Assembly: GCA_038747755.1 (NCBI GenBank) | Contig: JBCDJM010000029.1 | Coordinates: 1 to 42,220, forward strand | Origin: Cyanobacteria bacterium P01_H01_bin.35 | GTDB taxonomy: Bacteria; Cyanobacteriota; Cyanobacteriia; Cyanobacteriales; Microcoleaceae | DNA: 42,220 nt | Reading direction: 5' to 3' | Shown: positions 16,875 to 40,255 of the stretch, in pieces | Position numbering within the stretch: position 1 is the first letter of the stretch | Layout of the letters: the number at the start of each line of letters is the position of its first letter | Translations under genes and position numbers: made by a program | Notes under the pieces: generated by a model | What the model was told of the DNA's origin: nothing | The model's input: only the letters and a program-made list of their open reading frames with translations | The model's database searches: none

Positions 16875-19800
16875 TTACCCCGTGATACTTTTACGGAGCA
16901 AAGTTGAGAGTTTACTGAGTTTTTGCTCATCTAACTTAGCTAAAGGAAAATCATCAGGAGTATAATCCTCGGCCTCAGAGGAAAGGCAATGTTCAATGAG
17001 CGATCGCAAGTTTCCTAGAAAATCCTTCGCCATCTGTTGTATAGTAGTTTCTTGATGTAAATTCCGACTATAACGCCAATCAATTCTCAGTTGTTCCTGG
17101 ATAACGAAAGCATTGATTTCTAGGATGTACTGTCGTTGCTCCCTGGGGCTACGAGACAAGGTAAGTTCGCGGGTAAAGACAAAGGGGGAATCTTCTGGTA
17201 GCAGTTGCTCCATGCGCCCTAAATAATTGAATAGAATCTCCGATCGTGGTATTGATTCAAGTCTTTGGATAAGAGCTGCATCTGGACTGAGGTAGCGTAA
17301 CATCCCGTAGCCAATTCCTCGATTGGGAATATTACGCAGTTGCTCTTTGACAGACTTGAGGGCAGATTCTATATCGGAGACATCTTCTACTGTTAAGGTG
17401 ACGGGAAAAACAGAGGTAAACCAGCCGACAGTACGAGTTAAATTAGCCTCATTGACCATATTTTCCTCTCGCCCATGGCCTTCTAAGTCTACCTGAAGCG
17501 ATCGCTGTTGGGTATTTTGAGGAAAGGAGAGAATTAGGGCAGTTAATAATATCTCATTAATTTGAGTATGATAGGCGGTGGGAACTTCTTGTAAAAGTGC
17601 TTGGGTTTCTTTCTTACTCAGAGAGACAGAAAAATTATTAGCAGATGCTTCTGTATTTTCGCCATGGCGATCGTCTAAAGGAATCTGAGAATGGCTCAAA
17701 GAAGACTGCTTTAGCCAATAATCGACTTCCGATTGCAAGTTCCCTGACTGTACAGATTCAACTAGCTTTTCTGACCAACGTTTAAATGAAGTTGTCTTCA
17801 GGGGAAGTTGGATGGTCTTACCATCCATGAGTTGTTGACAAAGAGTTTGTAAATCTTGCAATAAAATTACCCAGGATACTCCATCAACAGCAAGATGGTG
17901 GATAATAATTAGTAAACGGTTGGATCGATTAACTCCTAGATTAAAAAAGGCAATCCTAATTAATTCTCCCTGAGAGAGGTTAAGACTTGTCTGCAACTCC
18001 TCTTCTATTGCGGTCATGGCAATATCTTGTTCTGATGCTTTTTTTTCTGATAGATCGACCAACTTCACCTCTACAGGAGACACAGAAGCAGAGTTAAACT
18101 GTTGCCAAGCAGATGACTCTTGAATAAAACGCAACCGCAGAGCATCATGGTGGATGAGTAGCTGTTGTATTGCTTTTTCCAACAAAGCAGAATCTAAATT
18201 TTCTGATATCTCTAGCAGCAGAGTTTGGTTATAGTGATGAGGGTCTCGAAGATTTTGTGTGAAGAAGGAATGTTGGATAGGAGTCAGGGGAATAGACCCT
18301 GTAACAATTCCTTGTTCTGATAGTATATTTGATGAAGTATTAACCTGATGGCTCAATCTCGCAATAGTGGGATGTTGAAACAGTTGATTTGGACTCAAAT
18401 ACAATCCCGCCTCGTTAGCTTTAGCTGCGATCTGAATAGCCATAATTGAATCGCCACCCAGGTCGAAGAAATTATCGTGGATACCTACTCGATCCACTTT
18501 TAGCACTGCTATCCACAATTGAGCTAAGGTCTTTTCAACTGGGGTACTCGGTGCAATAAAAGCTGTTTTTAGTTCTGGTCGAATATTTTCTGGATGAGGT
18601 AAAGCTTGGCGATCGAGTTTGCCATTACTGGTAAGGGGAATTTTGTCAAGCGGCACAAAGTAAGCAGGAATAGTATTCTGGGGAAGTTTTTGTGCGAGAT
18701 AAATTCTTAAATCTGAGGGAGTAAAATTGGTTGTACTAACATAATAAGCAACCAGACGATTTTCCATTTCTTCAGTATCAGTATACCCAATTTCCCCCAG
18801 AATTTGCTGTACATTCTCAACATTTATTTCATCATTAAGTTCTTCTAAAGCTGCATCTCTTTCTTTATGACCTAAACGCACATCCCAACTGTAGGGCAAA
18901 GCATAATTATGATAACCTTGCTTTTGAGTATGGATATGAATGCCGACGTTATTAATTAAACAGTTGGTGGAACGCCCTGTATCTGAAGGTCTAATCCAGG
19001 GGGCTTTTTCTTTGAGGAAGGTTAACATTTCATCAAGTTCCACATCACAGTAGCGATAGAAATCAATAATCTGAACTTTATCAAAGATGCTATCATCCTG
19101 AAATGCAGCAACATCTAATTCTCTAAATATAGCGTCGTCTACCTGATGATAAGCTTTTCTGGCTGCTAAAACCATTTCGTCAATTTGGTCAATATCAATG
19201 TTAGATTTTGTAAATAATTCTTCAGTTAGTCGCGTCTCAAAAAATTGCCCTCTAGATAACCCGGTAACAATTATCGGAATCCCTTTTTCATCGGCAAGTT
19301 TCATGCTGAGAGTATAGATAGTTTTAAAACAACCGTTACAAACATTGCAATGACGTTTGAGACTATCGACAAAAATAGCATTCATAGCTGGAGTAGTACC
19401 AAAAATATGTTCCACACCTAAAGAGTCAACCACTCGCCGAATATTACCTTTTGCTTGTTCAGAAATGTAGCCATTGTCTAGAGTAAAGGCTAATACCTTC
19501 AATCCCATTTCGACCAATTGATAGAGAACGTATGTACTATCTTTCCCCCCGCTGAGTAACATTAAGCAGTCATATTCTCCTTGTTTTTTAGTCTTTGCTT
19601 GCTCAAATATAGCTTGTAAATCTTGACGAGTTTTAAAATATTTCTGAGCTTTCTGCTTATAGGTTTCATAGCTGCGACAAATGTTACAAACTCCTGCTGA
19701 ATCAAAGGTAATACCGGGATAATTAGATGATATACCGCATTTTGTACAATAATGTAAGGGTGCTTGAATTTCTAATTGGGGATTTTTGCGACTCACATCT

Positions 19801-22517
19801 ACCACACAATCAGATATCATGGGATGAGAAGATAAAGCTGTTTCCACTTCCCCTAATTCAATTCTAGTACCGCGAATTTTTACCTGGCGATCGCCCCTAC
19901 CTAAATATTGCAATTGACCATTCTCTTGCCAACGACCTAAATCTCCTGTCTTGTAAATTCGTTCTCCAGGATGGAAGGGATTGGGAATAAAACGTTCTTG
20001 AGTCAGCTCCTGTCGGTTGAGATAACCTCTAGCTAAACCAGGACTAGCAATATAAATTTCTCCCACAACTCCTTGAGGAACGAGATTGAGATAATTATCC
20101 AACAAATAAATGCGAGATTGAGCTGTGGGTTTGCCAATGGGAACTGAAGTTTCTTTGTCTTCTTGCGGGTCGAAGCGATAAATCATGCAACCAACCGTTG
20201 CCTCAGTTGGACCGTATTCATTGTAAATTTCAATCTCTCCGTTAAAAGCATCTGTGACTGTTTTTGCCAAAGATGTCTTTAAGTCTTCTCCTCCCAGGAT
20301 CATTTTTTTGATGCGAGACTTACTCAAATCCATATCTTTAATAATAGACAAATGGGAAGGAGTAAGTTTAATAATATCCACAGCATTCTCTTCAACAATG
20401 CGTTGAATAGATAGATCGATTTCTCCTACATTTTCTCCATAAATTACTACTCTTCCCCCACTTAAAAGTGGCACAAAAATAGAAGTCACTGTTAAATCAA
20501 AAGAAAGAGGAGAAAAAAGAGGAAATGCTATTTCAGAGTTTTTATTATTCTGGTTTGGTAAATATTGTTGCTGTGCCCAAGATACATAATTAATTAATCC
20601 CTGATGTTCGATCATTACCCCTTTTGGTTGACCCGTGGAACCGGAAGTATAGATGATATAAGCTAAATGTTCTGGTTTGACATTACTCTCAAGATTTTCT
20701 GAGGATTGATCGCTAATTTTTTCCCAATCCCGATCCAGTTGCACAATCTCAAAACTCCTGTCAGAGGGCAACTCTTTCACTAAAGCTTCCTCTGTAAACA
20801 ATATGGGAACTTGGGTATCTTCTAGAATAAAAGCAATTCTCTCAGAAGGATAATTTGGTTCAATTGGCACATACGCACCTCCAGCTTTCAGAATACCCCA
20901 AATAGCAATTAACGTTTGGAGCGATCGCCTCATCAAAATTCCCACGGGAACTTCTGCGCCTACCCCTTGCTTTTTCAGATAGTGCGCTAGTTTATTAACT
21001 TGTTCATTAAAATTCCGATAAGTAACCTGCTTTTCTTCACCAATAATTGTTGATGTCTGTAAGGCTATCGCTTCAGGATTACTTTCAACCTGCGCTTCAA
21101 ATTTCTGAACAACAGTTTGCTTAAAGTCATCGCTCAAAATGGGAGGAGATATTTGTTCCTCTAAAAGATATTTTCTCTCTGCTTCTCCCACAATATTTAC
21201 CCGATCTATTGCTTGATTTCTATCTTCAATAAATCCTTTGAGCAGACTGATAAAATGGGCGATCGCTCGATGTTGTAACTTTTCGTCAAACAGGTCAGTA
21301 TTAAAATCAAAATGTAATAAAAAGTCACCAGAAGCATCAAAATCATGTACTTGCAGTCGCAGATGATGCTGACTGTCCACATATCCTGAATGAACCCACT
21401 CCGACTGCATTGGTAGTCCGTTGAAATCTGGTAAGGAAGCATTAATATAGTTAAGCACAACATTAATCCCACGATTAATCGCAGTACCACTAGCACCTGG
21501 TTGAGCATACCGTAGGAATGCACCAGACTCTTTTTGAACTTTCTTTAATAAGGATAAAAAAGTTTCTCCCGCCTCAATTTTAATTTGGAAAGGAAAGAGT
21601 TCGATAAAAACCCCGATGGTTTCCTTAAAATTAGTAGTAGGGCGATTATGGACTGGCGTGCTAATGGCCAATGTTTCTTGACCGCCAATGCGATAAAGAT
21701 AGGCAAAAAGAACAGTTGCAAAGATATTGAAGAGGGACAGATGTAGGCTCAGGGAACGAATATCTTTCTCCGTTGCCATTGCCCTTAATTTTTGGGATAG
21801 TTTGTCTGAGCCTAAATTGTAAGATACTCTTTGAGTTCTAGAAGAGGGTTGACTGATAGATTGGCCGTAAAAAACAACAGGTTCAAGGGATTTATTTTGA
21901 TGCTGTTGCCAATAATCTATAGCTTTTTTGTAGAGAGGAGAGTTTTGAGAGTCTTTTTCATAGGCAATATATTCGGCATAAGTTGGCAGTTTGGGTGATA
22001 CTAGAGTTCCCTGAATATATTGTCCATAAAACTCACTCATATAACGATAAACCAGCATCACTGACCAAGCATCTGTCATTAAATGATGCTGGTTAAGATA
22101 CCAGACAAACTGCTTTGAGCTGACTTTAATTAAGGCTGAATCAAACAGAATCGTTTCTAGATTAAAGGGTTGTTTGCATTGCTCTTGAATCCAGTTTTGT
22201 AAAGCGACTTTAGTATCAGCTTGGGCAGTAAAATCTAGTAAAGGTAAACTGTAGGGGAGTGTGGTTAGCACTCTTTGTTGAGGAATGTCATCAACTTCCT
22301 CAATAACAGTACGCAAAGCATCACTATTATTAACTAGGGTTTGAAAAGCTTGCTGAAAAAATACCGGTTCGATTTCACCATCAATGGTAAAAACCCAAAC
22401 CATGTTATACAATGGCGTCTCTGGATTCAACTTTTGCCCTAACCATAGTAACAGTTGACTGGATGTTAGGTTCGAGCGTTGGGCAAGATCATTAATTCGT
22501 TTTGTTGGAAGTGCCAT
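16875..22517 (-). CDS. NRPS, one module: C - A (interrupted by PP-loop domain) - T - E
   Basis: C domain: SSQLLLWLGQKLNPETPLYN, HHLMTDAWS. A domain: LAYIIYTSGSTGQPKG, NEYGPTE, YKTGDLGR, GRGDRQVKIRGTRIELGEVE, then a ~338-aa insert, then LPQNTIPAYFVPL and NGKLDRQALP. T domain: FFDLGGDSIMAIQI. E domain: LTPIQHSFF, HHLAVDGVSW, EGHGRE. The C-terminal tail is COM-donor-like: YTPDDFPLAKLDEQKLSKL. Confidence 0.95.
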   Translation of the reverse strand: MALPTKRINDLAQRSNLTSSQLLLWLGQKLNPETPLYNMVWVFTIDGEIEPVFFQQAFQTLVNNSDALRTVIEEVDDIPQQRVLTTLPYSLPLLDFTAQADTKVALQNWIQEQCKQPFNLETILFDSALIKVSSKQFVWYLNQHHLMTDAWSVMLVYRYMSEFYGQYIQGTLVSPKLPTYAEYIAYEKDSQNSPLYKKAIDYWQQHQNKSLEPVVFYGQSISQPSSRTQRVSYNLGSDKLSQKLRAMATEKDIRSLSLHLSLFNIFATVLFAYLYRIGGQETLAISTPVHNRPTTNFKETIGVFIELFPFQIKIEAGETFLSLLKKVQKESGAFLRYAQPGASGTAINRGINVVLNYINASLPDFNGLPMQSEWVHSGYVDSQHHLRLQVHDFDASGDFLLHFDFNTDLFDEKLQHRAIAHFISLLKGFIEDRNQAIDRVNIVGEAERKYLLEEQISPPILSDDFKQTVVQKFEAQVESNPEAIALQTSTIIGEEKQVTYRNFNEQVNKLAHYLKKQGVGAEVPVGILMRRSLQTLIAIWGILKAGGAYVPIEPNYPSERIAFILEDTQVPILFTEEALVKELPSDRSFEIVQLDRDWEKISDQSSENLESNVKPEHLAYIIYTSGSTGQPKGVMIEHQGLINYVSWAQQQYLPNQNNKNSEIAFPLFSPLSFDLTVTSIFVPLLSGGRVVIYGENVGEIDLSIQRIVEENAVDIIKLTPSHLSIIKDMDLSKSRIKKMILGGEDLKTSLAKTVTDAFNGEIEIYNEYGPTEATVGCMIYRFDPQEDKETSVPIGKPTAQSRIYLLDNYLNLVPQGVVGEIYIASPGLARGYLNRQELTQERFIPNPFHPGERIYKTGDLGRWQENGQLQYLGRGDRQVKIRGTRIELGEVETALSSHPMISDCVVDVSRKNPQLEIQAPLHYCTKCGISSNYPGITFDSAGVCNICRSYETYKQKAQKYFKTRQDLQAIFEQAKTKKQGEYDCLMLLSGGKDSTYVLYQLVEMGLKVLAFTLDNGYISEQAKGNIRRVVDSLGVEHIFGTTPAMNAIFVDSLKRHCNVCNGCFKTIYTLSMKLADEKGIPIIVTGLSRGQFFETRLTEELFTKSNIDIDQIDEMVLAARKAYHQVDDAIFRELDVAAFQDDSIFDKVQIIDFYRYCDVELDEMLTFLKEKAPWIRPSDTGRSTNCLINNVGIHIHTQKQGYHNYALPYSWDVRLGHKERDAALEELNDEINVENVQQILGEIGYTDTEEMENRLVAYYVSTTNFTPSDLRIYLAQKLPQNTIPAYFVPLDKIPLTSNGKLDRQALPHPENIRPELKTAFIAPSTPVEKTLAQLWIAVLKVDRVGIHDNFFDLGGDSIMAIQIAAKANEAGLYLSPNQLFQHPTIARLSHQVNTSSNILSEQGIVTGSIPLTPIQHSFFTQNLRDPHHYNQTLLLEISENLDSALLEKAIQQLLIHHDALRLRFIQESSAWQQFNSASVSPVEVKLVDLSEKKASEQDIAMTAIEEELQTSLNLSQGELIRIAFFNLGVNRSNRLLIIIHHLAVDGVSWVILLQDLQTLCQQLMDGKTIQLPLKTTSFKRWSEKLVESVQSGNLQSEVDYWLKQSSLSHSQIPLDDRHGENTEASANNFSVSLSKKETQALLQEVPTAYHTQINEILLTALILSFPQNTQQRSLQVDLEGHGREENMVNEANLTRTVGWFTSVFPVTLTVEDVSDIESALKSVKEQLRNIPNRGIGYGMLRYLSPDAALIQRLESIPRSEILFNYLGRMEQLLPEDSPFVFTRELTLSRSPREQRQYILEINAFVIQEQLRIDWRYSRNLHQETTIQQMAKDFLGNLRSLIEHCLSSEAEDYTPDDFPLAKLDEQKLSKLSTLLRKSITG
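18762..19775 (-). other. PP-loop ATP-pyrophosphatase / amidotransferase-like domain embedded in the A domain (aa ~915-1252)
   Basis: YCTKCGISSNYPGITFDSAGVCNIC ... EYDCLMLLSGGKDSTYVLYQ ... HCNVCNGC. The SGGKDS codons were checked at 19536-19553 (agc ggg ggg aaa gat agt on the minus strand). Confidence 0.75.
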
Positions 22518-22520
22518 TTC

Positions 22521-22555
22521 AGTTATCAGTTATCAGTTATCAGTTATCAGTTATC
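22521..22555. repeat. Tandem heptamer tract (AGTTATC x5; GATAACT on the coding strand) in the 5' leader of the NRPS gene
   Basis: Five perfect tandem copies start 4 nt from the ATG (22517-22515, minus strand). This is STRR-like. Confidence 0.9.
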
Positions 22556-22590
22556 AGTATCTCTACTAGCTCAAGTAAGAGGCTTGAAAT

Positions 22591-22887
22591 ATTGTAGTGG
22601 ACTGTTTCAGCTAAAACTGTGCATTAGATTTGTCATTGCGAACGACAGTGTTTGCGGAGCAGTCCGTCAGGATAGCAATCTCAGACCAATTTGCTATTGC
22701 ACCATTTAAGATGAAACAATCTACTACTGGAGTGACACAGCTAATTTTGTGCAATTGTAGTGGACTGTTTCAGCTAAAACTGTGCAATAGATTTTTGTTT
22801 CTAGGTGTCTTTTTCTCCCCACCCTTCCCGCACTTCCCACCCTCCCCACACTCCCGATCTAAGGCACCATTTAAGATCAAACAATCC
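22591..22887. repeat. Two ~165-bp-spaced direct repeat modules in the ACP-NRPS intergenic region
   Basis: The 41-mer attgtagtggactgtttcagctaaaactgtgcaWtagattt occurs at 22591-22631 and 22754-22794. The 23-mer gcaccatttaagatSaaacaatc occurs at 22699-22721 and 22865-22887. Confidence 0.75.
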
Positions 22888-23077
22888 AGTAGGGTGTGTT
22901 AGATGGCTTAAATTTAAACTATGAAAGAGATTTAGCAATCCATCGTAACGCACCATTTTAGATATATCGGTCTATTACTGGAGTATTTATAAGCATTTGG
23001 AATAATGGTGGATTTTACTGTCACGCATGGGGTTAGGTGGGATGATGCGTTAGTGTCACGTAACGCACCCTATTTGA

Positions 23078-23308
23078 CTATTTATTTAGATAAGTATCAA
23101 TTGTTTTAACTGTCCGAAAATTCTCAATTGTCACATCTTCCAAAGGTACAGTAATCTCAAACTTTTCCTCAATGAAGGCAATAAGTCGCATAATACCCAT
23201 AGAATCAACCCAATCATTTCCTAGCAAATCATCCTCTGCTCCTACCTCAAACCGACTGTTGAGTAAATTTTCACTGATATATCTTTTAAGTATTTCTTGA
23301 GTTTCCAC
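23078..23308 (-). CDS. Stand-alone acyl/peptidyl carrier protein
   Basis: The phosphopantetheine site context is NDWVDSMGIMRLIAFIEEKF. I place the start at GTG 23308 (in frame, preceded by GGAGGA at 23313-23318), giving 76 aa. The longer ORF to 23416 runs into repeat family B. Confidence 0.75.
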   Translation of the reverse strand: METQEILKRYISENLLNSRFEVGAEDDLLGNDWVDSMGIMRLIAFIEEKFEITVPLEDVTIENFRTVKTIDTYLNK

Positions 23309-23321
23309 CGATCCTCCTGAT

Positions 23322-23477
23322 TGCTGAATGCTGATTACTGACTGCTTTTTTAACTTACCGAAAAATAAAGGTTTAAAGCCTCTCCTTTCAAGGAAAAAAA
23401 AATTCCTTTTAACCAATTATCTTCTTTTTAAGAAGAGGTAATTATTAATTATTAATTGTTAATTATTAATTATTGAA
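23322..23477 (-). repeat. Dispersed repeat family B, copy 2 (inverted relative to copy 1)
   Basis: The reverse complement of 23354-23477 matches 2077-2199 almost base for base. It overlaps the last codons and stop of the adenylating-enzyme gene. Confidence 0.8.
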
Positions 23478-25034
23478 AGCTTCTTTTTGTAAAGCTCGGC
23501 GGTCTATTTTTCCCGTTGTTGTTCTTGGTAATTGTTCCCTGATAGAAATTTTCAAGGGAACTCCATACTTGGGAAGATACTTCGCTGCGTAGCGAATTAA
23601 CTCATCTGCACTTACCTCCTTTTCCTCTTTTAAAGTCACAGCAGCTTCTATATGATTACCTTCATTATCGGGTACAGAAAAAGCTCCTGCTTCTTCTACC
23701 TGGGGATGGGACACAAGAACAGCCTCTATTTCATCAAGTTCTACCCGATACCCTCGTGTTTTAATTTGTCGGTCTTTGCGTCCGAGAAAACTGTAATTAC
23801 CATCTGGTTGTAATTGTACTAAATCTCCTGTTCTGAAAAACACTTCTTTGTGGTTTCCAAATACAGGACGAGAAAAAAAAGCACATTCGTTCAGATCGGG
23901 GCGTTGCCAATACCCTTGCATCATAGTCGGTGTACGAACTAGCAATTCTCCCACCTCTCCAGAAGGTACAGGTCGATCTTGCTCGTCCACTACCAATTCT
24001 TCCGCATTCTCCCAAATACAACCAATGGGAACTGACTGTTCCGGAATAGTTTCTAACTTAGGAACATGGTAATATGTACATTGATTAATCTCTGCCGGAC
24101 CATATACATTACAAAAACGTGCTTGGGGAAGTTGCTCCATTAACTCGTATAAATATTTTGGTGGAAAGGGTTCTCCTCCAAATAATACCCAACGTAAGGA
24201 AGTCAAGTCGCGAGTTGGCAGCAGACCGCGTTGGAGCAACTGGATCAGAGCAAACGGAACAGAATACCAAATGGTGAGCTTTTCTTTTTCAATGAGTTGG
24301 GAAAGACTCGCGGGTAATTTGGTATAAGCTTCCGGAATAATAACGGTTGTCGCTCCTGCCAAAGGACCAGAAAAATAGTCAAGGGTAGACATATCAAAGT
24401 GTAATGGCGAATGGTTTCCCAAGCGATCGCCATGATGAAGTCCATAGGTATGAGCAGACATTTTGGCATAGCTCAAACCACTATGGTGAGTGTGCATGAT
24501 ACCTTTTGGTTCTCCTGTAGACCCAGAAGTATACATAATATAAGCCAGGTCTTGCTCCAGTATTCTGATATTGGGAGGAGACTCTCCAGAAATTTCCCAT
24601 ACTGTTTCCCAGGCAAAAGTTCGCACAGATAATTCTGTTGAAGCGACTCCGATAATATATTCTAGCGGAGTGGGTTCAGCTAAAATTTCTGAGATGTATG
24701 AGAGTTTTTGAGGTTGGGTAATTAGACCTCGAATACCGCAATTTTGCAGAATAAATCTAATCCGGGAGGCAGGTGCTGTAGGGTCTAAGGGAACATAAGC
24801 TGCTCCTGCTTTCATAATCCCATAGATAGCAACTGCTGATTCAAGGCTTTTATTGAGATAAATCCCAATTCGGTCTCCTCGCTCTACTCCCTGAGTCCTC
24901 ACAAAATTAGCTAGACTGTTAGACTGACTTACAAGGTTGGCATAGGTCAAGCTTTTAGATTCAAACCGGAAGGCTTCCTGTTCGGGAAATTGTTCTGCTG
25001 ACCGATCTATGGCATGGGGAATAAGATAAATCAT
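23466..25034 (-). CDS. Stand-alone adenylate-forming enzyme (amino-acid adenylation / DltA-like)
   Basis: 522 aa. Motifs: YIMYTSGSTGEPKG (A3), NVYGPAE (A5), FFRTGDL (A7), GRKDRQIKTRGYRVELDEIE (A8), TTTGKIDRRAL (A10). There is no fused carrier domain; a carrier protein gene follows. Confidence 0.85.
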   Translation of the reverse strand: MIYLIPHAIDRSAEQFPEQEAFRFESKSLTYANLVSQSNSLANFVRTQGVERGDRIGIYLNKSLESAVAIYGIMKAGAAYVPLDPTAPASRIRFILQNCGIRGLITQPQKLSYISEILAEPTPLEYIIGVASTELSVRTFAWETVWEISGESPPNIRILEQDLAYIMYTSGSTGEPKGIMHTHHSGLSYAKMSAHTYGLHHGDRLGNHSPLHFDMSTLDYFSGPLAGATTVIIPEAYTKLPASLSQLIEKEKLTIWYSVPFALIQLLQRGLLPTRDLTSLRWVLFGGEPFPPKYLYELMEQLPQARFCNVYGPAEINQCTYYHVPKLETIPEQSVPIGCIWENAEELVVDEQDRPVPSGEVGELLVRTPTMMQGYWQRPDLNECAFFSRPVFGNHKEVFFRTGDLVQLQPDGNYSFLGRKDRQIKTRGYRVELDEIEAVLVSHPQVEEAGAFSVPDNEGNHIEAAVTLKEEKEVSADELIRYAAKYLPKYGVPLKISIREQLPRTTTGKIDRRALQKEAFNN

Positions 25035-25167: not shown

Positions 25168-25177
25168 TCGTAAATTT

Positions 25178-29672: not shown

Positions 29673-29754
29673 TTTTATTTTCTGTTGATTAATGGGTAAT
29701 CCATAAACGATTATCCTGATAATTTAACTTATTCAGAGTGCACAGTTTTTTCTT

Positions 29755-32550: not shown

Positions 32551-32552
32551 AA

Positions 32553-33890
32553 ATGGCTCATATTGTTTGTATTACTGGTGGACTTACGGGTATATTTAAC
32601 GCGAGTATATCATTGGTCAAACAGTTGGAAAAAGCTGGTCATCGCATCACCTACGCTAGTCCAAAAGACTGGTCTGATTTAACTAATCAATATAATATTC
32701 CCTTTGTTCAACTCGATCCTTGGATATTCGAGTGGAAAGAACAACCTCTCAGTCGGTGGCAACAATTTCGTCAACTAGGAGAAAGAAGAAACCAAGCCAT
32801 AAAAGCATTGGGTGTAGAGAATTTTGCAGAAACGATGAAGGAATTAAACCCCGACTTGCTCCTCATCGATATGGAAATGCACCCACATATTATGACGGCG
32901 GTGGTTAACGATCTACCAGTGGCACTTTTATGCCAGTTTTTGTCTATTTGGAAACGAGGCAATTTACCCCCAATTCACACTGATATTATTCCAGGTGAAG
33001 GGTGGCGTGGAAAATGGTTCGGCATCGAATGGACTTGGCTACGTTACGGTTGGACAAAATGGCGGGAATATCAGCATGAGCGATGGCAAAAGATGGGAGT
33101 CGATCGCATTTCAGTTTTGCGTTGCTATGCTAAAAAAATAGGCTACCCTTTTCGAGAAAGATTTGGATTTAAACAGTCAGTTGTACCTTATCCCCATAAG
33201 GGACTTCCTATTCTCTGTTTCAATGGTTTAGAGTTAGATTTTCACCACGATCCACCTTCCTCAATGTACTACATAGGGCCGATGGTATGGGAAAATCGTC
33301 AAGAATCAAAGATTGAACAAAACACTTATCAAACCTTAGAGCGAATCTTTGAAAAACGTCGTCTGACTGGAAATTCATTAATTTATTGTGGTTGTAGTAG
33401 CTTTAATAGGATTAATACAAAATTTTTGCGACAAATTATAGATGCAGTGTCAAGTTGTCCACAATGGGATTTAGTAGTAGGTCTTGGCAGTCAGTTAGAT
33501 TTTGATAAATTAGGCTCTCTTCCTTCTAACGTATATGTTTTGAGTTGGGCACCTCAAACACAAATACTCAAGCACGCTGACTGCGCTATCATTAACGCAG
33601 GTATTAATACCATCAATGAGTGTATTTACTTTGGCGTCCCTATGCTAGTCTATTCCCTTAAGCGTTACGATCAAAATGGAAATGCAGCACGAATAATTTA
33701 TCATCAGCTTGGCATTGTGGGGGATATGAAGCAAGATAATGTACCTCAGATTCGTAATTATATTCAAACTCTGTTAACAGATAAGTCTTACCAAATACAA
33801 GTGAATAGTATACGCGCTCGCTTTCGTCGCTATTCTGATGAGAATGTAGCTGCTAAAGTTGTTGAAGCTTTGTTAAATGTACAGAATTAG
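32553..33890 (+). CDS. GT1-family (MGT/UDP-glycosyltransferase-like) glycosyltransferase
   Basis: 445 aa. The C-terminal nucleotide-sugar motif is WAPQTQILKHADCAIINAGINTINECIYFGVPMLVYSLKRYDQNGNA (W.PQ..L.H...... N...E....G.P....P...DQ..NA pattern). The ATG lies 2 nt after the NRPS stop and has a GAGGAGGA Shine-Dalgarno. Confidence 0.8.
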   Translation: MAHIVCITGGLTGIFNASISLVKQLEKAGHRITYASPKDWSDLTNQYNIPFVQLDPWIFEWKEQPLSRWQQFRQLGERRNQAIKALGVENFAETMKELNPDLLLIDMEMHPHIMTAVVNDLPVALLCQFLSIWKRGNLPPIHTDIIPGEGWRGKWFGIEWTWLRYGWTKWREYQHERWQKMGVDRISVLRCYAKKIGYPFRERFGFKQSVVPYPHKGLPILCFNGLELDFHHDPPSSMYYIGPMVWENRQESKIEQNTYQTLERIFEKRRLTGNSLIYCGCSSFNRINTKFLRQIIDAVSSCPQWDLVVGLGSQLDFDKLGSLPSNVYVLSWAPQTQILKHADCAIINAGINTINECIYFGVPMLVYSLKRYDQNGNAARIIYHQLGIVGDMKQDNVPQIRNYIQTLLTDKSYQIQVNSIRARFRRYSDENVAAKVVEALLNVQN

Positions 33891-33917
33891 AAAAAAGTAA
33901 TTGATTAACTTTTTATT

Positions 33918-34673
33918 ATGAATAATCAAACAACAGAAAAAGAAATTATTCTAGAAGAATTCAATAAACTTACTAAGTTTGTGAAACCTCCGATGACAAG
34001 TTTGGAGAATATCAAGAGTATTTTTAAACTATGGCTAAGTTTTAATTTCACCAGATTAATGCAAAGAATAGGATTTAATCGCAAAAAAATAAAAACATTT
34101 TCCGAAAAATCGCAGATAATTCTTAATATTGGTTGTGCAGGAGATGAAAAAGAAGAGTATATTAATGCTGACGTATTTCGTGTTTTCGGTGATTGGGGAT
34201 TCGCTAGTATTAGGAGATTTCTTCTTGGCAATAGGGATAAAACTAGGTACGATTTATTTCTTAATTTAACTGAACTAGACCAAGATTTATTAGGAATTGC
34301 TGATTTTATTATTCTTTCTCATGTGTTAGAACATATTCATCCTCAATATGCTTTAGTAGCTTTGAAAAATTGTTTTGATTATCTAAAAATAGGAGGATAT
34401 ATTCGTCTTGCTGTTCCTTTTTTAGATGCTTATAATACTTCTAATTTACCCGAATGTCAAAAACTAACTTATCCAATATTAGCAAAAAATAGACTTATAT
34501 ATGGATGGGGGCATTGTTTTATGTATGATGCAGTTTTGCTAAAATTTTTATTAGAAGAAGCAGGTTTTTCTGAAGTAGAGCAAGTTAATTTCGGCTCTGG
34601 TATTTTAGGAGAAACTGATGTAGCAGAATACCGACAAGAATCTATATATCTCAAGGGAAAAAAATTAAATTAG
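33918..34673 (+). CDS. Class I SAM-dependent methyltransferase (Methyltransf_11-like)
   Basis: Motif I-like ILNIGCAGD is present, followed by FIILSHVLEHIHPQYALVALKNCFDYLKIGGYIRLAVP (post-II/III region). Length is 251 aa. Confidence 0.65.
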   Translation: MNNQTTEKEIILEEFNKLTKFVKPPMTSLENIKSIFKLWLSFNFTRLMQRIGFNRKKIKTFSEKSQIILNIGCAGDEKEEYINADVFRVFGDWGFASIRRFLLGNRDKTRYDLFLNLTELDQDLLGIADFIILSHVLEHIHPQYALVALKNCFDYLKIGGYIRLAVPFLDAYNTSNLPECQKLTYPILAKNRLIYGWGHCFMYDAVLLKFLLEEAGFSEVEQVNFGSGILGETDVAEYRQESIYLKGKKLN

Positions 34674-34688
34674 TTTATTACATTTTTT

Positions 34689-35627
34689 ATGAACAAATCT
34701 TATGAACAACAAAATCCCATTTTTATTGTAGGAATGCCGAGATCTGGCACGACTTTAATACGTACTTTGTTATCGGCACATCCTCATATTACTATTTCAC
34801 CAGAAACTCACTTTATCAAAAATTGGTTCAAACCATATCGACATTTAGATTTGAATCAACCAGAGCAATGGGAAAATTTTTGGCAAGCTCTCAGCTATAG
34901 CGAGATATTTAAATCTTTGGGATTGGATACCGGAAAAACCCAGGCAAATCTTTTAGCCCTGGATAATATTAACCATAAAAATGTATTTACTGTGCTTCTC
35001 CAATCTTATGCTAGGAAAATGCAAAAACAAAGATGGGGAGAAAAAACACCAGATCATTACCAATATTTAGATATTTTATTCAGATGGTATCCTGATGCAA
35101 AAGTCATTTGGATGTTGCGAGATCCTCGTGCAGTAAGTGCTTCTTTAATAACTAAAAAATGGGCTAGCTCTTATATAGATGTTCATGCTCGTAAATGGTT
35201 TTATAGTATGGAAAAATTTACACAAATATGGTCTAAAGATAGGCGTATTCTGTTGGTTAAATATGAATCATTGGTACGAAAGCCTGAACTGGAAATGTCT
35301 CGTATTTGTAATTTTTTACAAGAAGATTATAGCTCTCTAATAATTTCAGAAAATCAAAAATCTCCCAGCATCTTGGGATTAAAAAGTATTATTGATGAAT
35401 CTGTTCAAGAAGTTTTAAATCCAGTTCATCAAACAGCATTAGAAAAGTGGAAGACAAATTTATCTGCTTATCAAATTGGTGTTGTAGAACATTTTACTAG
35501 AAATGAAATGTTAGAACAGGGATATAAACCTATTACTAATAAATTAAGTAGGTTACAATCTCTGCAACTTTTTCTAATTTTGAATTTACGGAAACTCAAA
35601 AATAACATGAAAAATATGAGGATTTAA
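34689..35627 (+). CDS. Sulfotransferase (PAPS-dependent)
   Basis: The 5'-PSB loop is IFIVGMPRSGTTLIRTLL and the 3'-PB region is VIWMLRDPRAVSASL. Length is 312 aa. Confidence 0.8.
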   Translation: MNKSYEQQNPIFIVGMPRSGTTLIRTLLSAHPHITISPETHFIKNWFKPYRHLDLNQPEQWENFWQALSYSEIFKSLGLDTGKTQANLLALDNINHKNVFTVLLQSYARKMQKQRWGEKTPDHYQYLDILFRWYPDAKVIWMLRDPRAVSASLITKKWASSYIDVHARKWFYSMEKFTQIWSKDRRILLVKYESLVRKPELEMSRICNFLQEDYSSLIISENQKSPSILGLKSIIDESVQEVLNPVHQTALEKWKTNLSAYQIGVVEHFTRNEMLEQGYKPITNKLSRLQSLQLFLILNLRKLKNNMKNMRI

Positions 35628-35722
35628 ACTGAGGGTATTTTCGCGATAATAAACTTATATTTTTCTACTTTTATTAGCCTTAAATAATACCTTAAAATAG
35701 CTCGAAAAATTAACATAGTTGT

Positions 35723-37729
35723 ATGATGAATCAAAAAACAGAATTATATCAAAGAGTTGCAGAACTCTCCCCTAGTCAGCGAGCAAAACTATTAAGGAAA
35801 ATTCAGCAATTCAAATCAGATAAATTTCCTCAAGATCGTCAAAGATTAGTAGCTTATATTGTCCCCCAATCTTCTGCTAATAATCTAGAATCTTCTGTAT
35901 TACGAGACTATCTTAAAGTTAAACTACCCAACTATATGATTCCGGCAGGAATTATGTTCCTAGAAGAATTGCCTCGTACTGCTAATGGGAAAATTGACAT
36001 TAAAGCACTACCTGAATTGCAATTAGCAAGCATCAACGCCGATCGCGCAAGCGGAACGGAGTTCTATCGCTCAAGTTTGCCGCAAACTTCAACAGAAAAG
36101 ACGCTGGCTGAAATTTGGAGTCAAGTTTTAGGAATTGACACAATAGGTATTAATGATAATTTCTTTGAGCTAGGAGGAGATTCTATCCTGAGTATTCAGA
36201 TTACGTCTAAAGCACGGGAGGCTGGACTAAGGTTATCTCCCAACCAACTTTTTGAAAAACCTACTATTGCTGAATTAGCTAATGTTGTTAATATTGCCCC
36301 TGAAGCGATCGCGACTCAAAAACCTGTTACCGGAGCAGTGCCACTTACTCCCATTCAGCACTGGTTTTTTGAGCAGGAGATGATTGCCCCACACCACTGG
36401 CATCAAGCAATGTTACTAGAAATGCCTGTTGAGGTAAGCGCGTCTAAGATTCAAGAAGCGATCGCCACTTTATGGACTCACCATGATGCTTTAAGGTTAA
36501 GTTACAACTTTGATTCAACTGGTTGGCAGCAAATCAATAAAAATGAGTCAGAGCGACCATCCCTAGTTCAAATAGACATCTCTGGTTTGAGTGAAGCGGA
36601 ACAAACGGAAGCAGTTGCTAAATACGGTACAGATATTCACAGTGGTATGAATTTTGCTGCTGGTAAACTAATGGAAGTTGCTCATTTTGCCCGTGGTGAA
36701 AATCTATCTAGTTGGCTTCTAATTAGTCTCCATCATTTAGTTGTAGATACAGTTTCTTGGCAAATTTTACATAATGATTTAGAAAGGTTGCTCTTTACAC
36801 AAGTCGGGCAGTTACCAGCAAAAACAACCTCTTTCAAAACTTGGGCAGAGATACTTACTGCTCAAGCACCACAACGAGAGTCTGAAGCAGATTTTTGGTT
36901 GAAGCAAGTTGAGTCGGTATTTATCCGCCTACCGCGAGATTTCTCAGATACTCCAAAATTGACTGAAGCTACTGCACAAACCGTAAATGTGCAACTTGAT
37001 GTTGATGATACTCAAGCTTTACTACGATCTGTGCCAGCTACTTACAATACACAAATTAATGATGTACTACTGACAGCTCTAGCAAAAACATTACTTCAAT
37101 GGAGCGGGGTAAAGGCAGGAAATATTCGGCTCGATCTAGAAGTACACGGTCGCGAGCAAATTGTACCTGAAATAGATTTATCAAAAACAATAGGTTGGTT
37201 TACGATGGTTTATCCATTGAAGTTAGAGTTAAGAGAAAGAGATGAAAATGACGCGCTAGTCAAATCTGTGAAAGAACAAATTCGGGAAATTCCAGACCGT
37301 GGTATTGGTTACGGAATTTTACGTTACTTGGGGGATGAAACTACTCGTCGCCGACTAACTCAGGCACAAAGCTCTGAAATATTATTCAATTATTTAGGTC
37401 AGTCAGATCGTACTACTGGCAAAGAAAGGATCGAGATGATTCCAGATATTTCTGTTGGTCAACTCAGAGATTTGCGTAATAGCCGTAGCTACTTGCTAGA
37501 GATAAATGCTTGGGTTGCTAATGGAAAATTGCAACTTAATTGGATATACGATCACCAAGTATATCAATTAGAGACTATTAGCACAATAGCAAAAAATTAT
37601 ATTAGTACGCTCAAATCTATCATTCTAAAGTGCATAGAATCTGATAACATTAGCTTTACCCCCTCTGACTTTCCTGATGCGGAGCTAAGTCAGACAGAAT
37701 TAGATGAATTTCTTGATAATATTACATAA
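35723..37729 (+). CDS. NRPS fragment: C-terminal part of an A domain (A9-A10) - T - E
   Basis: A 40-aa head is followed by RLVAYIVPQ, LPNYMIPAGIMFLEELP (A9) and NGKIDIKALP (A10). T domain: FFELGGDSILSIQI. E domain: LTPIQHWFFE, HHLVVDTVSW, EVHGRE. The COM-donor-like tail is FTPSDFPDAELSQTELDEFL. Confidence 0.9.
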   Translation: MMNQKTELYQRVAELSPSQRAKLLRKIQQFKSDKFPQDRQRLVAYIVPQSSANNLESSVLRDYLKVKLPNYMIPAGIMFLEELPRTANGKIDIKALPELQLASINADRASGTEFYRSSLPQTSTEKTLAEIWSQVLGIDTIGINDNFFELGGDSILSIQITSKAREAGLRLSPNQLFEKPTIAELANVVNIAPEAIATQKPVTGAVPLTPIQHWFFEQEMIAPHHWHQAMLLEMPVEVSASKIQEAIATLWTHHDALRLSYNFDSTGWQQINKNESERPSLVQIDISGLSEAEQTEAVAKYGTDIHSGMNFAAGKLMEVAHFARGENLSSWLLISLHHLVVDTVSWQILHNDLERLLFTQVGQLPAKTTSFKTWAEILTAQAPQRESEADFWLKQVESVFIRLPRDFSDTPKLTEATAQTVNVQLDVDDTQALLRSVPATYNTQINDVLLTALAKTLLQWSGVKAGNIRLDLEVHGREQIVPEIDLSKTIGWFTMVYPLKLELRERDENDALVKSVKEQIREIPDRGIGYGILRYLGDETTRRRLTQAQSSEILFNYLGQSDRTTGKERIEMIPDISVGQLRDLRNSRSYLLEINAWVANGKLQLNWIYDHQVYQLETISTIAKNYISTLKSIILKCIESDNISFTPSDFPDAELSQTELDEFLDNIT

Positions 37730-37747
37730 TTACATAAAAAACTTGAT

Positions 37748-40255
37748 ATGGAAAAACAAAATATAGAAGCTATATACCCTCTCACCTCTTTGCAACAAGC
37801 ATTTTTATGGCATAGTTTGCAAACTTCTTCCCAAGCAGGGTTACTACATATAAGTTGCGAGCTACACGGAGAAGTAAACCAAGTTATATTAAAGGAAGCT
37901 TGGGAGTTTGTCTTCAGTCTTCATCCAACATTACGCACGTCAGTTCATTGGGAGTCAGTCAAACAACCTCTACAAGTTGTTGGTAAGCAGGTGAAACTGC
38001 CTTGGGTTACACTCGACTGGCAAGGAAAAGAAGATCGAGATTCAGTGTTAGCTGACTTTCTGATTGAAGACCGCAATGAAGGATTCGACCTTACCCAAGC
38101 TCCAATTAGTCGTATAGCTCTAATTCAACTGACCGATCTAGACTATAAATTAATCTGGAGTTGTCACCATCTGATGTTAGATGGTTGGTCAGGAGCAGTA
38201 GCTCTCAATCAAGTATTTGATAGCTATGAAATGTTGCTTCAGGGAGAGTCTCCATCAATAGCAAGACCCCAAACTTATCAAAATTATATCCGTTGGTTAA
38301 AGCAACAAGATGAATCTGCTGCTAGTGACTTCTGGCAAAAAATGTTAGATGGGTTTACCACTCCTACCCCTCTACCAATTTCTCAACCAAGAGAGAAAAA
38401 TTATTCTCAAACAGAAAGTTTATCCATCGCTATTTCAGAAGAAACCACTACTGAAATAGGTAGTTTCTTGCGTTCCCATAGACTAACATTAAACACATTA
38501 ATACAGAGTATATGGGGTTTGTTACTATATGCCTACAGTGGAAAAACAGATGTTCTATTTGGGGCAACAGTATCAGGGCGTCAAGGTTACTTGGCAGGAG
38601 TTGAAACCATTGTTGGTTTGCTGAATAATGTATTACCAATACGACTACAGATTTCTCCAGAAGAAAATATACTTTCTTGGCTAGAAAATTTACAAACTCA
38701 GCAAGCAAAAGCTAGTAAATTTGCATATGCTTCATTAGTTCAGATTCAAACTTGGAGTCAATTATCGAAACCTTTATTTGATAGTCTATTGGTAATTGAA
38801 AATTATCCAATGAAAATAGCTGAATCATGCAAAAGTTTACAAGTAGATAATGTTGAATCAGGTATTATTAGCACTTATGATTTAACCATAATTGTCATAG
38901 CTAGAAATACCTTAACAGTGAAATTATGTTATAAAAATAAGCATTTTGAACCTCAAATCATACAAACTTTACTTGAGCAGTTTGAACAAATTTTAAATAA
39001 TATTATCCAAAACCCATTACAGGCGATCGCCGAAATTGTACCCTTGACTGACTCGGTAATTAGTCAAAATCAGTCTCCGAAAACCATATCCCATACAAAT
39101 TCTTCCCTTAAGCTTAATAGAGAAGAACTAGAAGGCAGTTTTTTTAGTCCACAAAATCCTATGGAACTTAAACTCACTCAAATATGGGAATCTGTTTTGG
39201 GAGTTAGTCCGCTCAATGTTGAAGCAAGTTTCTTTGACTTAGGTGGAAATTCGCTCATGGCAGTACAATTATTTAATCAAATGCAGCAGCAACTTAACTG
39301 TACATTGCCCCTAGCAAGTTTGTTTCAAGCACCTAATGTCCGGAAGTTTGCTCGACTACTTAGTCAGGATCGACCCGTTTCACAATGGTCAAGTCTTGTA
39401 CCAATTCAGTCAAATGGCTCTAAATTACCATTTTTCTTTCATGGAGGTTCAGCAGATGCACTAACATGGGCTAGGTTTTCTCATTTTTTAGGTTCAGACC
39501 AGCCTTTTTATGCTCTACAACGTCCCGAACTCAATGGTGGAGAAATTTCTCAGAATACAGCTGAATCTCTAGCTGAAGCTTGTGTTAAAGAAATACGCAT
39601 GGTACAACCACAGGGACCTTACCTGATCGGAGGACACTGCTTTGGTGGCGCAGTTGCTTTTGAGATCGCCCAGCAACTCCAAGCTCAAGGGGAAGATATT
39701 GCTAGCATTATTTTGATTGACGCTTATTGCCCAAATTCTGTATCTATAAATGCTATTAGTGAATTGCAAACAAAACTTCAACTCGGAGTATTTTGGTTAA
39801 GGAAAAACTATTATTATCATGGCGACTGGAATAAGGTAAAACTTCTACCTCAGAAAGTATGGCAGAAATTAGGAAAAAAGAAAAAACATCACCCAAAAAC
39901 TATAAATACTACAGATACGGATGTCGTTTCTGAAATAGCCAAAAATACTTCTAAACTTGCCAAAACTACTAAACCAAAAATGTCATACGAATATCTATAT
40001 GCTCGTGCTCAACAAGCTAATGAGATTGCCGCAAATAACTATTTACCTCAACCCTATTCAGGAAAAATTAAATTGTTTCGAGCGGAAGTTCAAATGTTAG
40101 ACTGGCAATTTGGTTTCCCACTTGGTTGGCAGAAGGTTAGTAAAGAAGAAATTGAAGTGACAAATATCCCTGGTTTTTTCGGTAACTTATTTAATCAAAA
40201 ATCTGGATTATTGCTCGCCGAACAAGTAAAAAATTATTTGTTGAACCTTTCATAA
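37748..40255 (+). CDS. NRPS termination module without A domain: C - T - TE
   Basis: C domain: IYPLTSLQQAFLWH, HHLMLDGWS. A ~40-aa linker follows. T domain: FFDLGGNSLMAVQL. TE domain: PFFFHGGSADA..., with nucleophile elbow LIGGHCFGGAVA (Cys631, TGC 39638-39640). No A-domain core motifs are present. Confidence 0.9.
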   Translation: MEKQNIEAIYPLTSLQQAFLWHSLQTSSQAGLLHISCELHGEVNQVILKEAWEFVFSLHPTLRTSVHWESVKQPLQVVGKQVKLPWVTLDWQGKEDRDSVLADFLIEDRNEGFDLTQAPISRIALIQLTDLDYKLIWSCHHLMLDGWSGAVALNQVFDSYEMLLQGESPSIARPQTYQNYIRWLKQQDESAASDFWQKMLDGFTTPTPLPISQPREKNYSQTESLSIAISEETTTEIGSFLRSHRLTLNTLIQSIWGLLLYAYSGKTDVLFGATVSGRQGYLAGVETIVGLLNNVLPIRLQISPEENILSWLENLQTQQAKASKFAYASLVQIQTWSQLSKPLFDSLLVIENYPMKIAESCKSLQVDNVESGIISTYDLTIIVIARNTLTVKLCYKNKHFEPQIIQTLLEQFEQILNNIIQNPLQAIAEIVPLTDSVISQNQSPKTISHTNSSLKLNREELEGSFFSPQNPMELKLTQIWESVLGVSPLNVEASFFDLGGNSLMAVQLFNQMQQQLNCTLPLASLFQAPNVRKFARLLSQDRPVSQWSSLVPIQSNGSKLPFFFHGGSADALTWARFSHFLGSDQPFYALQRPELNGGEISQNTAESLAEACVKEIRMVQPQGPYLIGGHCFGGAVAFEIAQQLQAQGEDIASIILIDAYCPNSVSINAISELQTKLQLGVFWLRKNYYYHGDWNKVKLLPQKVWQKLGKKKKHHPKTINTTDTDVVSEIAKNTSKLAKTTKPKMSYEYLYARAQQANEIAANNYLPQPYSGKIKLFRAEVQMLDWQFGFPLGWQKVSKEEIEVTNIPGFFGNLFNQKSGLLLAEQVKNYLLNLS

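Follow-up and report, generated by a model that had tools for sequence, protein, structure and literature searches.

The analysed stretch of DNA (the window) comprised positions 1 to 42,220 of contig JBCDJM010000029.1 (assembly GCA_038747755.1), a length of 42,220 nucleotides, and identical proteins were annotated at NCBI in the metagenome-assembled genome (MAG) of Cyanobacteria bacterium P01_H01_bin.35. Positions 16875-40255 contained a nonribosomal peptide synthetase (NRPS) locus in two divergent operons, with the minus operon spanning 28880 to 16875 and the plus operon 29755 to 40255. On balance, the evidence favours one cluster at 16875-40255, encoding an NRPS line of three modules that starts from a proline-derived unit and would follow the pathway proposed below. 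The closest relatives of the cluster were found in Dapis sp. BLCC M126 (proteins 95-98% identical), while the housekeeping protein ThiC had its closest relative in Okeania; both are marine filamentous cyanobacteria. An assembly artefact was ruled out because of the near-identical homologues in Dapis. The gene and domain map of a preliminary description of this DNA was reproduced by open reading frame (ORF) listing and by Pfam and NCBIfam scans, with every ORF and domain lying where it had been placed, and the peptide strings quoted in it (YTPDDFPLAKLDEQKL, FTPSDFPDAELSQTEL, MKLENVADIYPLS, MEKQNIEAIYPLT, SSQLLLWLGQKLNPETPLYN and HHLMTDAWS) were all found. The features of the locus were as follows, with C, A, T, E and TE for condensation, adenylation, thiolation, epimerisation and thioesterase domains and L numbers for related loci in other genomes.

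27555-28880, minus strand: membrane protein with HupE/UreJ_2 and N-terminal DUF6702 domains, first gene of the minus operon
26375-27466, minus strand: ornithine cyclodeaminase (OCD) family protein (Pfam OCD_Mu_crystall, 207.9 bits)
25178-26326, minus strand: acyl-CoA dehydrogenase (ACAD) family flavoprotein, closest solved relative AnaB
23466-25034, minus strand: free-standing A enzyme, closest single-domain PDB match PltF
23078-23308, minus strand: stand-alone carrier protein, 76 aa (PP-binding 21.8 bits; serine motif DWVDSMG)
16875-22517, minus strand: NRPS1, 1880 aa, C-A(interrupted)-T-E (Pfam/NCBIfam)
21168-22478, minus strand: NRPS1 C domain of EntF/MxcG type, HHLMTDAWS motif intact
19800-21101, minus strand: NRPS1 A-domain core, Asn code DLTKIGEVGK
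18777-19760, minus strand: NRPS1 AMDH insertion (PP-loop ATP pyrophosphatase), residues 920-1247, between A8 and A9
18348-18776, minus strand: NRPS1 A9-A10 followed by the T domain (AMP-binding_C aa 1247-1300, PP-binding aa 1330-1390)
16875-18299, minus strand: NRPS1 E domain with basic COM-donor-like tail DFPLAKLDEQKLSKLSTLLRK (Condensation aa 1407-1856; TIGR01720 142.6 bits)
28881-29754, no strand: divergent promoter region (promoter scan; alignment with Dapis, L006 and L007)
29755-32550, plus strand: NRPS2 N-fragment, C-Acore, ending after A8 (Pfam: Condensation and AMP-binding only)
32553-33890, plus strand: GT1-family glycosyltransferase (GT) of OleD/YjiC/CalG type (Pfam UDPGT and EryCIII-like_C)
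33918-34673, plus strand: S-adenosylmethionine-dependent methyltransferase (MT; Methyltransf_23, 38.9 bits)
34689-35627, plus strand: 3'-phosphoadenosine-5'-phosphosulfate-type sulfotransferase (ST; Sulfotransfer_3, 136 bits)
35723-37729, plus strand: NRPS2 C-fragment, Asub-T-E (AMP-binding_C, PP-binding, Condensation; TIGR01720 148.9 bits)
37748-40255, plus strand: NRPS3, C-T-TE without an A domain (Pfam)

The HHxxxD catalytic motifs and carrier serines were all intact across the cluster. In L054, L011, L012 and L018, genes for the HupE-like protein, OCD, ACAD, A enzyme, peptidyl carrier protein (PCP), NRPS1, C-Acore, tailoring enzymes, Asub-T-E and NRPS3 were co-directional. Since relatives hold all genes in this manner, the two operons were taken as one cluster and the divergent layout of the window as a lineage-specific rearrangement. 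A shared distribution of the two operons, which had been proposed as a test of their relatedness, was thus observed, with relatives carrying all genes as one array.

The first part of the minus operon after the HupE-like gene encoded enzymes of proline activation and oxidation. The flavoprotein gave 4IRN (AnaB prolyl-ACP dehydrogenase) as its top PDB match with 453.7 bits, followed by a runner-up at 298 bits and by the pyrrole-forming PigA-type 5ZW0 at 295.7 bits, and it scored AnaB well above ordinary acyl-CoA dehydrogenases. The top NCBIfam models were PigA (401.7 bits) and RedW (344.6 bits), both below their equivalog cutoffs. For the free-standing A enzyme, PltF (6O6E, L-proline-carrier-protein ligase) was the best single-domain PDB match of the whole protein. 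Its specificity region scored 122.9 bits (PltF) and 93.6 bits against two solved proline ligases and at most 78 bits against all others, and its code, DMLYLGVQ(C)K, agreed with that of PltF at 6 of 10 positions; the enzyme is predicted to be specific for L-Pro. The OCD protein scored 199.5 bits against the NCBIfam ornithine cyclodeaminase model, under the 350-bit cutoff, and would supply L-Pro from L-Orn. The carrier-protein ORF was listed as 23078-23416, and its start was revised to GTG at 23308 (76 aa), the likely start because of an AGGAGG upstream and a 76-aa match to the Dapis gene.

From these homologies, the OCD, the free A enzyme, the 76-aa carrier and the flavoprotein can be read as a proline-oxidation cassette. 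A carrier protein, a Pro-specific A enzyme and an ACAD constitute the standard thiotemplated pyrrole cassette (PMC10849742). The same set of Pro-activating A enzyme, small carrier and ACAD flavoprotein occurs in AnaB/AnaC/AnaD of anatoxin-a, PltE/PltF/PltL, PigA/PigI/PigG and ChmH of chalkophomycin; the window has a dedicated ornithine cyclodeaminase in addition. In the anatoxin, pyoluteorin and prodigiosin pathways the prolyl unit passes to a polyketide synthase (PKS), whereas in the window it would pass to an NRPS C domain. The locus had been described as unlike that of anatoxin, and this held for the PKS part (anaE-G), as Pfam found no ketosynthase, acyltransferase or ketoreductase domain in any window ORF, but not for the flavoprotein, which was closest to AnaB (454 bits against at most 298).

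The NRPS1 C domain aligned with the MxcG and EntF models from residue 13-14 onward. EntF and MxcG take aroyl groups from free carrier proteins. A minimal relative in Neolewinella (L039) had the order HupE-OCD-ACAD-A-PCP-[C-A*-T], where A* is the interrupted A domain, with a single C domain present. Minimal relatives such as this one have no other C domain, and the NRPS1 C domain must therefore, by comparison of the loci, take over the oxidised prolyl unit.

The A domain of NRPS1 was interrupted after the A8 motif GRGDRQVKIRG and before RLVAYYV...NGKLDR. The inserted domain was 51% identical to the AMDH domain of CysH over 327 aa, at full length (BLASTP, E=3e-133; the CysH sequence was taken from the source data of PMC7966384). 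The alignment had an invariant PP-loop, SGGKDS, and a zinc ribbon, CxxC...CxxC, with three more Cys residues invariant besides. A protein search returned 688 AMDH relatives, each followed by A9-A10 and a T domain. In CysH, the AMDH domain acts on T-bound L-Asn and yields beta-cyano-L-alanine by dehydration or isoasparagine by isomerisation; it carries SGGKD and has a homologue in AlbIV of the albicidin pathway (PMC7966384). CysH, AlbIV and the window thus have in common an Asn-specific A domain that holds, between A8 and A9, a PP-loop domain of about 330 aa with the SGGKD motif. CysH itself is a stand-alone A-AMDH-T protein that feeds a para-aminobenzoic acid assembly line via a shuttle enzyme, with hydroxylase and O-methyltransferase partners, whereas the window has C-A(AMDH)-T-E in a Pro/Asn/His line, with an E domain added. 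No homologues of CysJ, CysQ or CysB were found in the window cluster.

Specificity codes, proposed earlier as a check, were obtained for all three A domains by GrsA-anchored alignment, in which the control returned DAWTIAAIC as expected, and predicted Pro, Asn and His. The NRPS1 code was DLTKIGEVGK, and it was identical or changed at one residue in 73 of 73 AMDH-bearing A domains of related loci. PMC12283262 lists this code for Asn and for cyanoalanine. By analogy with CysH, beta-cyanoalanine or isoasparagine is the predicted product of the AMDH domain from carrier-bound Asn. An amidated product had been proposed earlier; it is not supported, as the insertion is an AMDH domain with 51% identity to that of CysH, whose chemistry gives a nitrile or isoasparagine.

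An AlphaFold (AF2) model of the domain had a predicted local distance difference test (pLDDT) score of 91.1. Its top fold match was 8WEX, a Legionella N-acetyl sugar amidotransferase (E=2.7e-12), and the next matches were other PP-loop ATP pyrophosphatases (YcfA, TtuA, LarE, asparagine synthetase and carbapenam synthetase). The modelled PP-loop fold fits ATP-dependent activation of a carboxamide. The top family model was TIGR03573 (WbuX, N-acetyl sugar amidotransferase), with a whole-length match of 136 bits, below the cutoff. These two results raise the alternative that the domain acts like an N-acetyl sugar amidotransferase and turns the Asn carboxamide into an amidine, or amidates it, in place of forming a nitrile or isoasparagine. 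Such chemistry is improbable, since the identity to 8WEX was 16% against 51% over the full length of the CysH domain, for which dehydration and isomerisation of Asn have been shown, and no glutamine amidotransferase partner (WbuY/WbuZ-like) was present in the window. After the CysH match, this amidine-forming reading was no longer the first choice and was retained as a low-probability rival. A thioamide-forming reading (CtaC/TtuA-like), prompted by the three invariant Cys residues, was dropped after the same match. Conversion to beta-cyanoalanine or isoasparagine is therefore the preferred reading for this domain.

Database proteins of about 500 aa that resembled a stand-alone AMDH-T were rejected as such, being fragments of longer NRPS genes: partial genes at contig ends or broken ORFs, the latter in two long-contig loci that were examined. 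These two (L002 and L003, ENA contigs of 197 and 502 kb) had NRPS genes split into many short ORFs, probably due to frameshift errors. Short stand-alone AMDH proteins in databases accordingly need cautious reading. A literature search found nothing on PP-loop-interrupted adenylation or on N-acetyl sugar amidotransferases together with NRPS, and QueC with NRPS gave only false matches.

The second module was divided between two proteins. Behind the A core came a stop codon (32550), then three separate genes and a new start at 35723. The C domain of the N-fragment was of the type that follows E domains, and the E domain at the end of the C-fragment carried an acidic COM-donor-like tail. The code of the split A domain, extracted against GrsA, was DSALIAEVW(K), and DSALIAEVWK is a published His code (PMC12283262). 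In about 40 related loci, the AMDH module was followed by a His module whose code was DSALIAEVW or differed from it at one position. The N-fragment carried a conserved acidic terminal helix (SLIEELLALNPDQANELLVSVEE) and ended with '...VVVVAQSIQQSSASDSVDSLIEELLALNPDQANELLVSVEEDS*', a tail kept in all split homologues. The C-fragment carried a basic N-terminal helix (ELYQRVAELSPSQRAKLLRK) and started with 'MMNQKTELYQRVAELSPSQRAKLLRKIQQFK...QRLVAYIV', followed by normal A9/A10 with the Lys517 equivalent. Both terminal helices were present in every split homologue: Dapis, L006-L008, the cyanobacterial loci L054, L011 and L012, an Anaerolineales MAG (L035) and Algibacter (L077). The split therefore recurs in three phyla, namely Cyanobacteria, Chloroflexota (L035) and Bacteroidota (L077). 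In an unsplit flavobacterial homologue (L074), the equivalent helix elements were fused in frame at the same loop; the unsplit L031, L055 and L027 were without them. The two A-domain polypeptides probably dock through these conserved helices. A literature search, which covered open-access text, found no report of an A domain split in nature.

The dN/dS values were 0.17-0.23 for the N-fragment, 0.16-0.18 for the GT gene and 0.34 for the C-fragment, and 0.16-0.34 overall for the two halves and the nested genes, which on these ratios are under purifying selection. Because of this selection, the split is taken as an evolved and maintained architecture and not as decay. A decaying module, with only Pro-Asn* (Asn* being the AMDH-treated residue) made and the plus operon inactive or acting elsewhere, would agree with the minimal relatives L039 and L029, which end after C-A*-T, with the truncated second NRPS of Adonisia (L010) and with the lack of a published natural precedent. 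It is nevertheless very improbable, as all ORFs were intact, the His code was kept including the Lys on the second fragment, and the recurrence of the split in three phyla with the same terminal helices and the low dN/dS values (0.17-0.34) speak against it. In L010 (Adonisia turfae CCMR0081, 12817-16382), the second NRPS was cut off inside the A domain and followed by a Tex-like gene, and this copy of the cluster appears truncated.

The three tailoring genes named in the preliminary description (GT, MT and ST) were all present between the two halves of module 2. Relatives carried different sets at this place: GT, MT and ST in Crocosphaera L008, as in the window; GT and a Stf0-type ST in Dapis and L015; GT and MT in L006 and L007; MT and GT in L054, L011 and L012; and in L035 a 263-aa protein of no recognised family. 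The methyltransferase of the window had counterparts in L006, L007 and L008 but none in Dapis. The GT matched OleD in the PDB (E=1e-18), and the ST reached 67 bits against the NoeE-like model, below its cutoff, with PDB matches to TPST and the CurM sulfotransferase; both sulfotransferase types (NoeE-like and Stf0) resemble carbohydrate sulfotransferases.

Both A domains of the NRPS modules were broken in the A8/A9 loop, as in interrupted A domains with M, KR or Ox insertions, and this loop is reportedly the usual site of A-domain insertions (2015 review by Labby et al.). Module 1 was an in-frame interrupted A domain of this kind. Module 2 was not, being physically split around one to three free-standing tailoring genes in place of an in-frame domain.

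The two E domains named earlier were real, since the epimerase-specific tail TIGR01720 scored 143 bits in E1 and 149 bits in E2 (cutoff 74); the C domain of NRPS3 was without it. Two pairs of termini were recognised, a Lys-rich tail after E1 with the start 'MENVADIYPLS' and an acidic tail after E2 with the start 'MDKQNIEAIYPL'. The two tail types were conserved in cyanobacterial relatives and less clear in L031 and L035, as judged from position and motif resemblance and not from a COM profile. These two conserved donor/acceptor-like types support the order starter, NRPS1, split module and C-T-TE, and the order, which had been proposed before, was the same in the single arrays of L054, L011 and L012. 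In tyrocidine and gramicidin S synthetases, a COM donor tail after an E domain pairs with an acceptor before a C domain of the type that follows E domains; the putative pairs of the window were assigned to this kind by position and motif resemblance.

In L031, Pfam likewise showed C-T-TE with no A domain, and other phyla had proteins of similar length that aligned with NRPS3 throughout. The TE nucleophile of NRPS3 was Cys631 (GGHCFGG, 39638-39640) and not Ser. The Cys-type motif GG[HY]C[FV]GG was also found in at least six relatives in other phyla (L031, L068, L071, L073, L079 and L040). Cys thioesterases elsewhere have been linked to strained-ring release.

The distribution was scanned with one genome per species, and neighbourhoods were counted in the 80 best loci, many of which were truncated, by stringent identity thresholds (at least 35% for the HupE-like protein and the GT). 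AMDH relatives occurred in at least 542 species genomes from about ten phyla. The 80 best AMDH loci were 60-96% identical (most 60-78%) and came from Cyanobacteria, Bacteroidota, Actinomycetota, Planctomycetota, Chloroflexota, Acidobacteriota, Gemmatimonadota, Verrucomicrobiota, Calditrichota, Alphaproteobacteria and Gammaproteobacteria. Orthologues beside the AMDH module in these 80 were the HupE-like protein (40), the free A enzyme (39), the AnaB-like ACAD (33), the cyclodeaminase (26), the carrier protein (25) and the GT (12). The designation 'orphan divergent' given earlier was upheld insofar as no described product was found, and corrected insofar as AMDH-Asn modules are widespread (at least 542 species genomes) and often have the same genes beside them. 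Many AMDH clusters without an assigned product, including Leptolyngbya and Confluentibacter homologues, were reported by Gross et al. (2021) (PMC7966384), and the window cluster belongs among these unassigned homologues.

Six loci from Mesorhizobium, Microvirga and others (L061, L066, L052, L060, L078 and L049) had A(Asn)-AMDH-T without a C domain, together with an ACAD, a TE with TubC_N docking and a phosphopantetheinyl transferase. These Rhizobiales loci are probably a separate cluster type. Their ACAD was rejected as AnaB-like, being only about 29% identical.

The HupE-like gene, listed earlier but left uninterpreted, proved to be a conserved member of the cluster family and points to metal binding (Pfam HupE_UreJ_2 154.6 bits, DUF6702 35.5 bits). 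In all 48 HupE-like proteins compared, a signal peptide was present and the residue directly behind it, the predicted N-terminus of the mature protein, was His; of the membrane residues, H241, D247, H248, E312 and H346 were invariant and H292 was conserved in 98%. This His/Asp/Glu pattern we take to be the one expected for HupE/UreJ Ni/Co permeases, and the protein is a putative metal or metallophore permease. A TonB-dependent receptor (740 aa, with a Plug domain) adjoined the AMDH locus in 19 Bacteroidota loci and was seen only in the Bacteroidota relatives. The invariant His in third position behind an N-heterocycle (an ATCUN-like register), the HupE-type protein and the TonB receptors together suggest a metal-binding product, with Ni, Co and Cu among the candidate metals. 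In ATCUN sites (NH2-X-X-His), the ligands stand in the register in which the predicted N-heterocycle-X-His would place a ring N, two amide N and an imidazole; the analogy is purely structural, as the N-terminus here would be a cyclic imine or a pyrrole and not a free amine, and the residues would be D. Proline-derived pyrrole ligands are found in the Cu(II) metallophore chalkophomycin (PMC10849742). Rfam found no riboswitch or other RNA within or beside the cluster, and it gave therefore no RNA-level hint of a metal.

The wider reading is that of a pan-bacterial, so far unrecognised metallophore family, with an oxidised-Pro cap, beta-cyanoalanine or isoasparagine, and His forming an ATCUN-like Ni/Cu/Co site, and with a split A domain rejoined by helices. 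This reading is put forward tentatively, and more doubtfully than the cluster assignment itself. It would include a dedicated HupE/UreJ-type permease, joined in Bacteroidota by the TonB receptor, and an A-domain core and subdomain that would reassemble around a swappable tailoring cassette, an NRPS architecture for which no description was found.

A serious rival, possible though not favoured, is a bioactive peptide (antibiotic or toxin) that is not a metallophore, with the HupE-like protein as an exporter or for self-protection and the TonB receptors incidental. Marine filamentous cyanobacteria are generally known to be rich in toxins. The sole characterised AMDH pathways, those of cystobactamid and albicidin, yield topoisomerase-targeting antibiotics and not metallophores (PMC7966384), and Pfam and NCBIfam found no genes of classical chelator biosynthesis in the window (catechol, salicylate, hydroxamate, beta-OH-Asp/His, diazeniumdiolate or thiazoline Cy-domain genes); both points also count against metal binding by the product. 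A non-metal function is opposed by the membership of the membrane protein in the HupE/UreJ Ni/Co permease superfamily, with metal-ligand-like His/Asp residues and the N-terminal His kept, by His as the invariant second residue and the siderophore-type TonB receptors at 19 loci, and by the spread over about ten phyla, a distribution seen more typically in traits of nutrient acquisition.

Further points weigh against the cluster as proposed here or its link to metal. No described product of the cluster was found in the literature, and searches via HupE/NRPS/cyclodeaminase, cyanoalanine metallophores and nickelophore or ATCUN NRPS returned no description of the cluster family. We know of no measured substrate for the DUF6702-HupE_UreJ_2 subfamily. 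Enzymes of AnaB type lead to a pyrroline and those of PigA/PltE type to a pyrrole, and both would fit the sequence here. The window AMDH may catalyse dehydration or isomerisation; CysH performs both reactions, with an outcome that depends on the hydroxylase (PMC7966384), and the cluster is without this CysH-partner hydroxylase. The cluster has no A domain for the T domain of NRPS3 (T3), which must be loaded in trans, and the predicted peptide has no obvious hydroxyl as a sugar acceptor.

With these points considered, one cluster with a proline-derived starter is still favoured, and the following order of chemical steps is proposed from the domain map, homologies, codes and conservation observed. 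The cyclodeaminase would make L-Pro, which the free A enzyme would load on the 76-aa carrier protein, and the AnaB-like flavoprotein would oxidise the prolyl thioester to a pyrroline-5-carboxyl or pyrrole-2-carboxyl group. The EntF-type C domain of NRPS1 would couple this cap to Asn on the T domain of module 1 (T1), the AMDH domain would use ATP to turn the Asn amide into a nitrile (beta-cyanoalanine) or the residue into isoasparagine, and the E domain would then epimerise it. Module 2, with its A domain formed by two polypeptides (core and subdomain), would add His, likewise epimerised, and C-T-TE with its T domain loaded in trans would complete the chain, for release by the Cys thioesterase. 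The nested GT would attach a sugar (hexose), the probable target of both the methyltransferase and the sulfotransferase. The product is most likely a pyrroline- or pyrrole-carbonyl, D-(beta-cyano)Ala or an Asn isomer, D-His and a further terminus, with a hexose. As a best guess, we infer a glycosylated, N-capped, metal-binding peptide with D-residues.

Further observations were made within and around the cluster. A promoter candidate, TTGACA-16-TATACT, was located at 29090-29063, inside a conserved stretch of 285 bp adjoining the HupE-like gene. Just these 285 bp of the divergent region were common to L006 and L007, and the remaining approximately 590 bp were an insertion also present in Dapis. 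No MbtH-like ORF was found in the window. The carrier-protein gene and NRPS1 were separated by a 560-bp spacer (22518-23077) that was missing in other cyanobacteria, where both genes abut. Short repeats (33-41 nt) were scattered through it, together with an inverted pair at 22694-22790, and a heptamer run, (TCAGTTA)n, extended up to the NRPS1 start codon. The spacer looks like insertions of the miniature inverted-repeat transposable element (MITE) type.

A TnpB/IS605 OrfB gene (15628-16746, minus strand) abutted the 3' end of NRPS1 and marked the cluster edge, and in Crocosphaera L008 a different TnpB-family gene (5421-6743) lay immediately upstream of NRPS1. The flanking genes (TetR, short-chain dehydrogenase/reductase, TnpB and orf361) were excluded from the cluster because conservation with it was not seen in related loci. 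The 361-aa ORF after the cluster (40742-41827, plus strand) had no Pfam, NCBIfam or PADLOC match and no homologue in any related locus. An ordinary thiamine pyrophosphate riboswitch (RF00059, 68.9 bits; 8795-8890, minus strand), unrelated to the cluster, lay directly upstream of thiC (7327-8787). Genes for an AAA_15 ATPase and a DUF4435 protein (11482-13538, plus strand) overlapped by 4 nt, scored 91 bits (AriA) and 89 bits (AriB) in PADLOC and look like a PARIS-type anti-phage pair. Two large tetratricopeptide-repeat proteins with C-terminal sulfotransferase domains were encoded at 231-2075 and 2834-5332 (plus strand), with a GT2 gene nearby (5768-6766), and these two proteins were not conserved along with the cluster.

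The kinds of parts in this cluster are known: NRPS, the AMDH domain, the proline-oxidation cassette and GT/MT/ST tailoring. New are their combination into a conserved, multi-phylum family without a product and the split A domain with its nested, swappable tailoring cassette. For NRPS engineering, the split in the A8/A9 loop would offer a precedent from nature for dividing A domains there and rejoining them by docking helices. Cultured carriers of minimal and extended versions are available, namely Dapis sp. BLCC M126, Neolewinella xylanilytica DSM 29526 and Zobellia and Algibacter species. The window and the 80 loci give many product-less AMDH clusters a common context of proline-oxidation starter, His module and HupE-type protein, and they lead to the testable prediction of a small nitrile- or isoasparagine-containing Pro-X-His peptide, possibly a chelator of Ni, Co or Cu.

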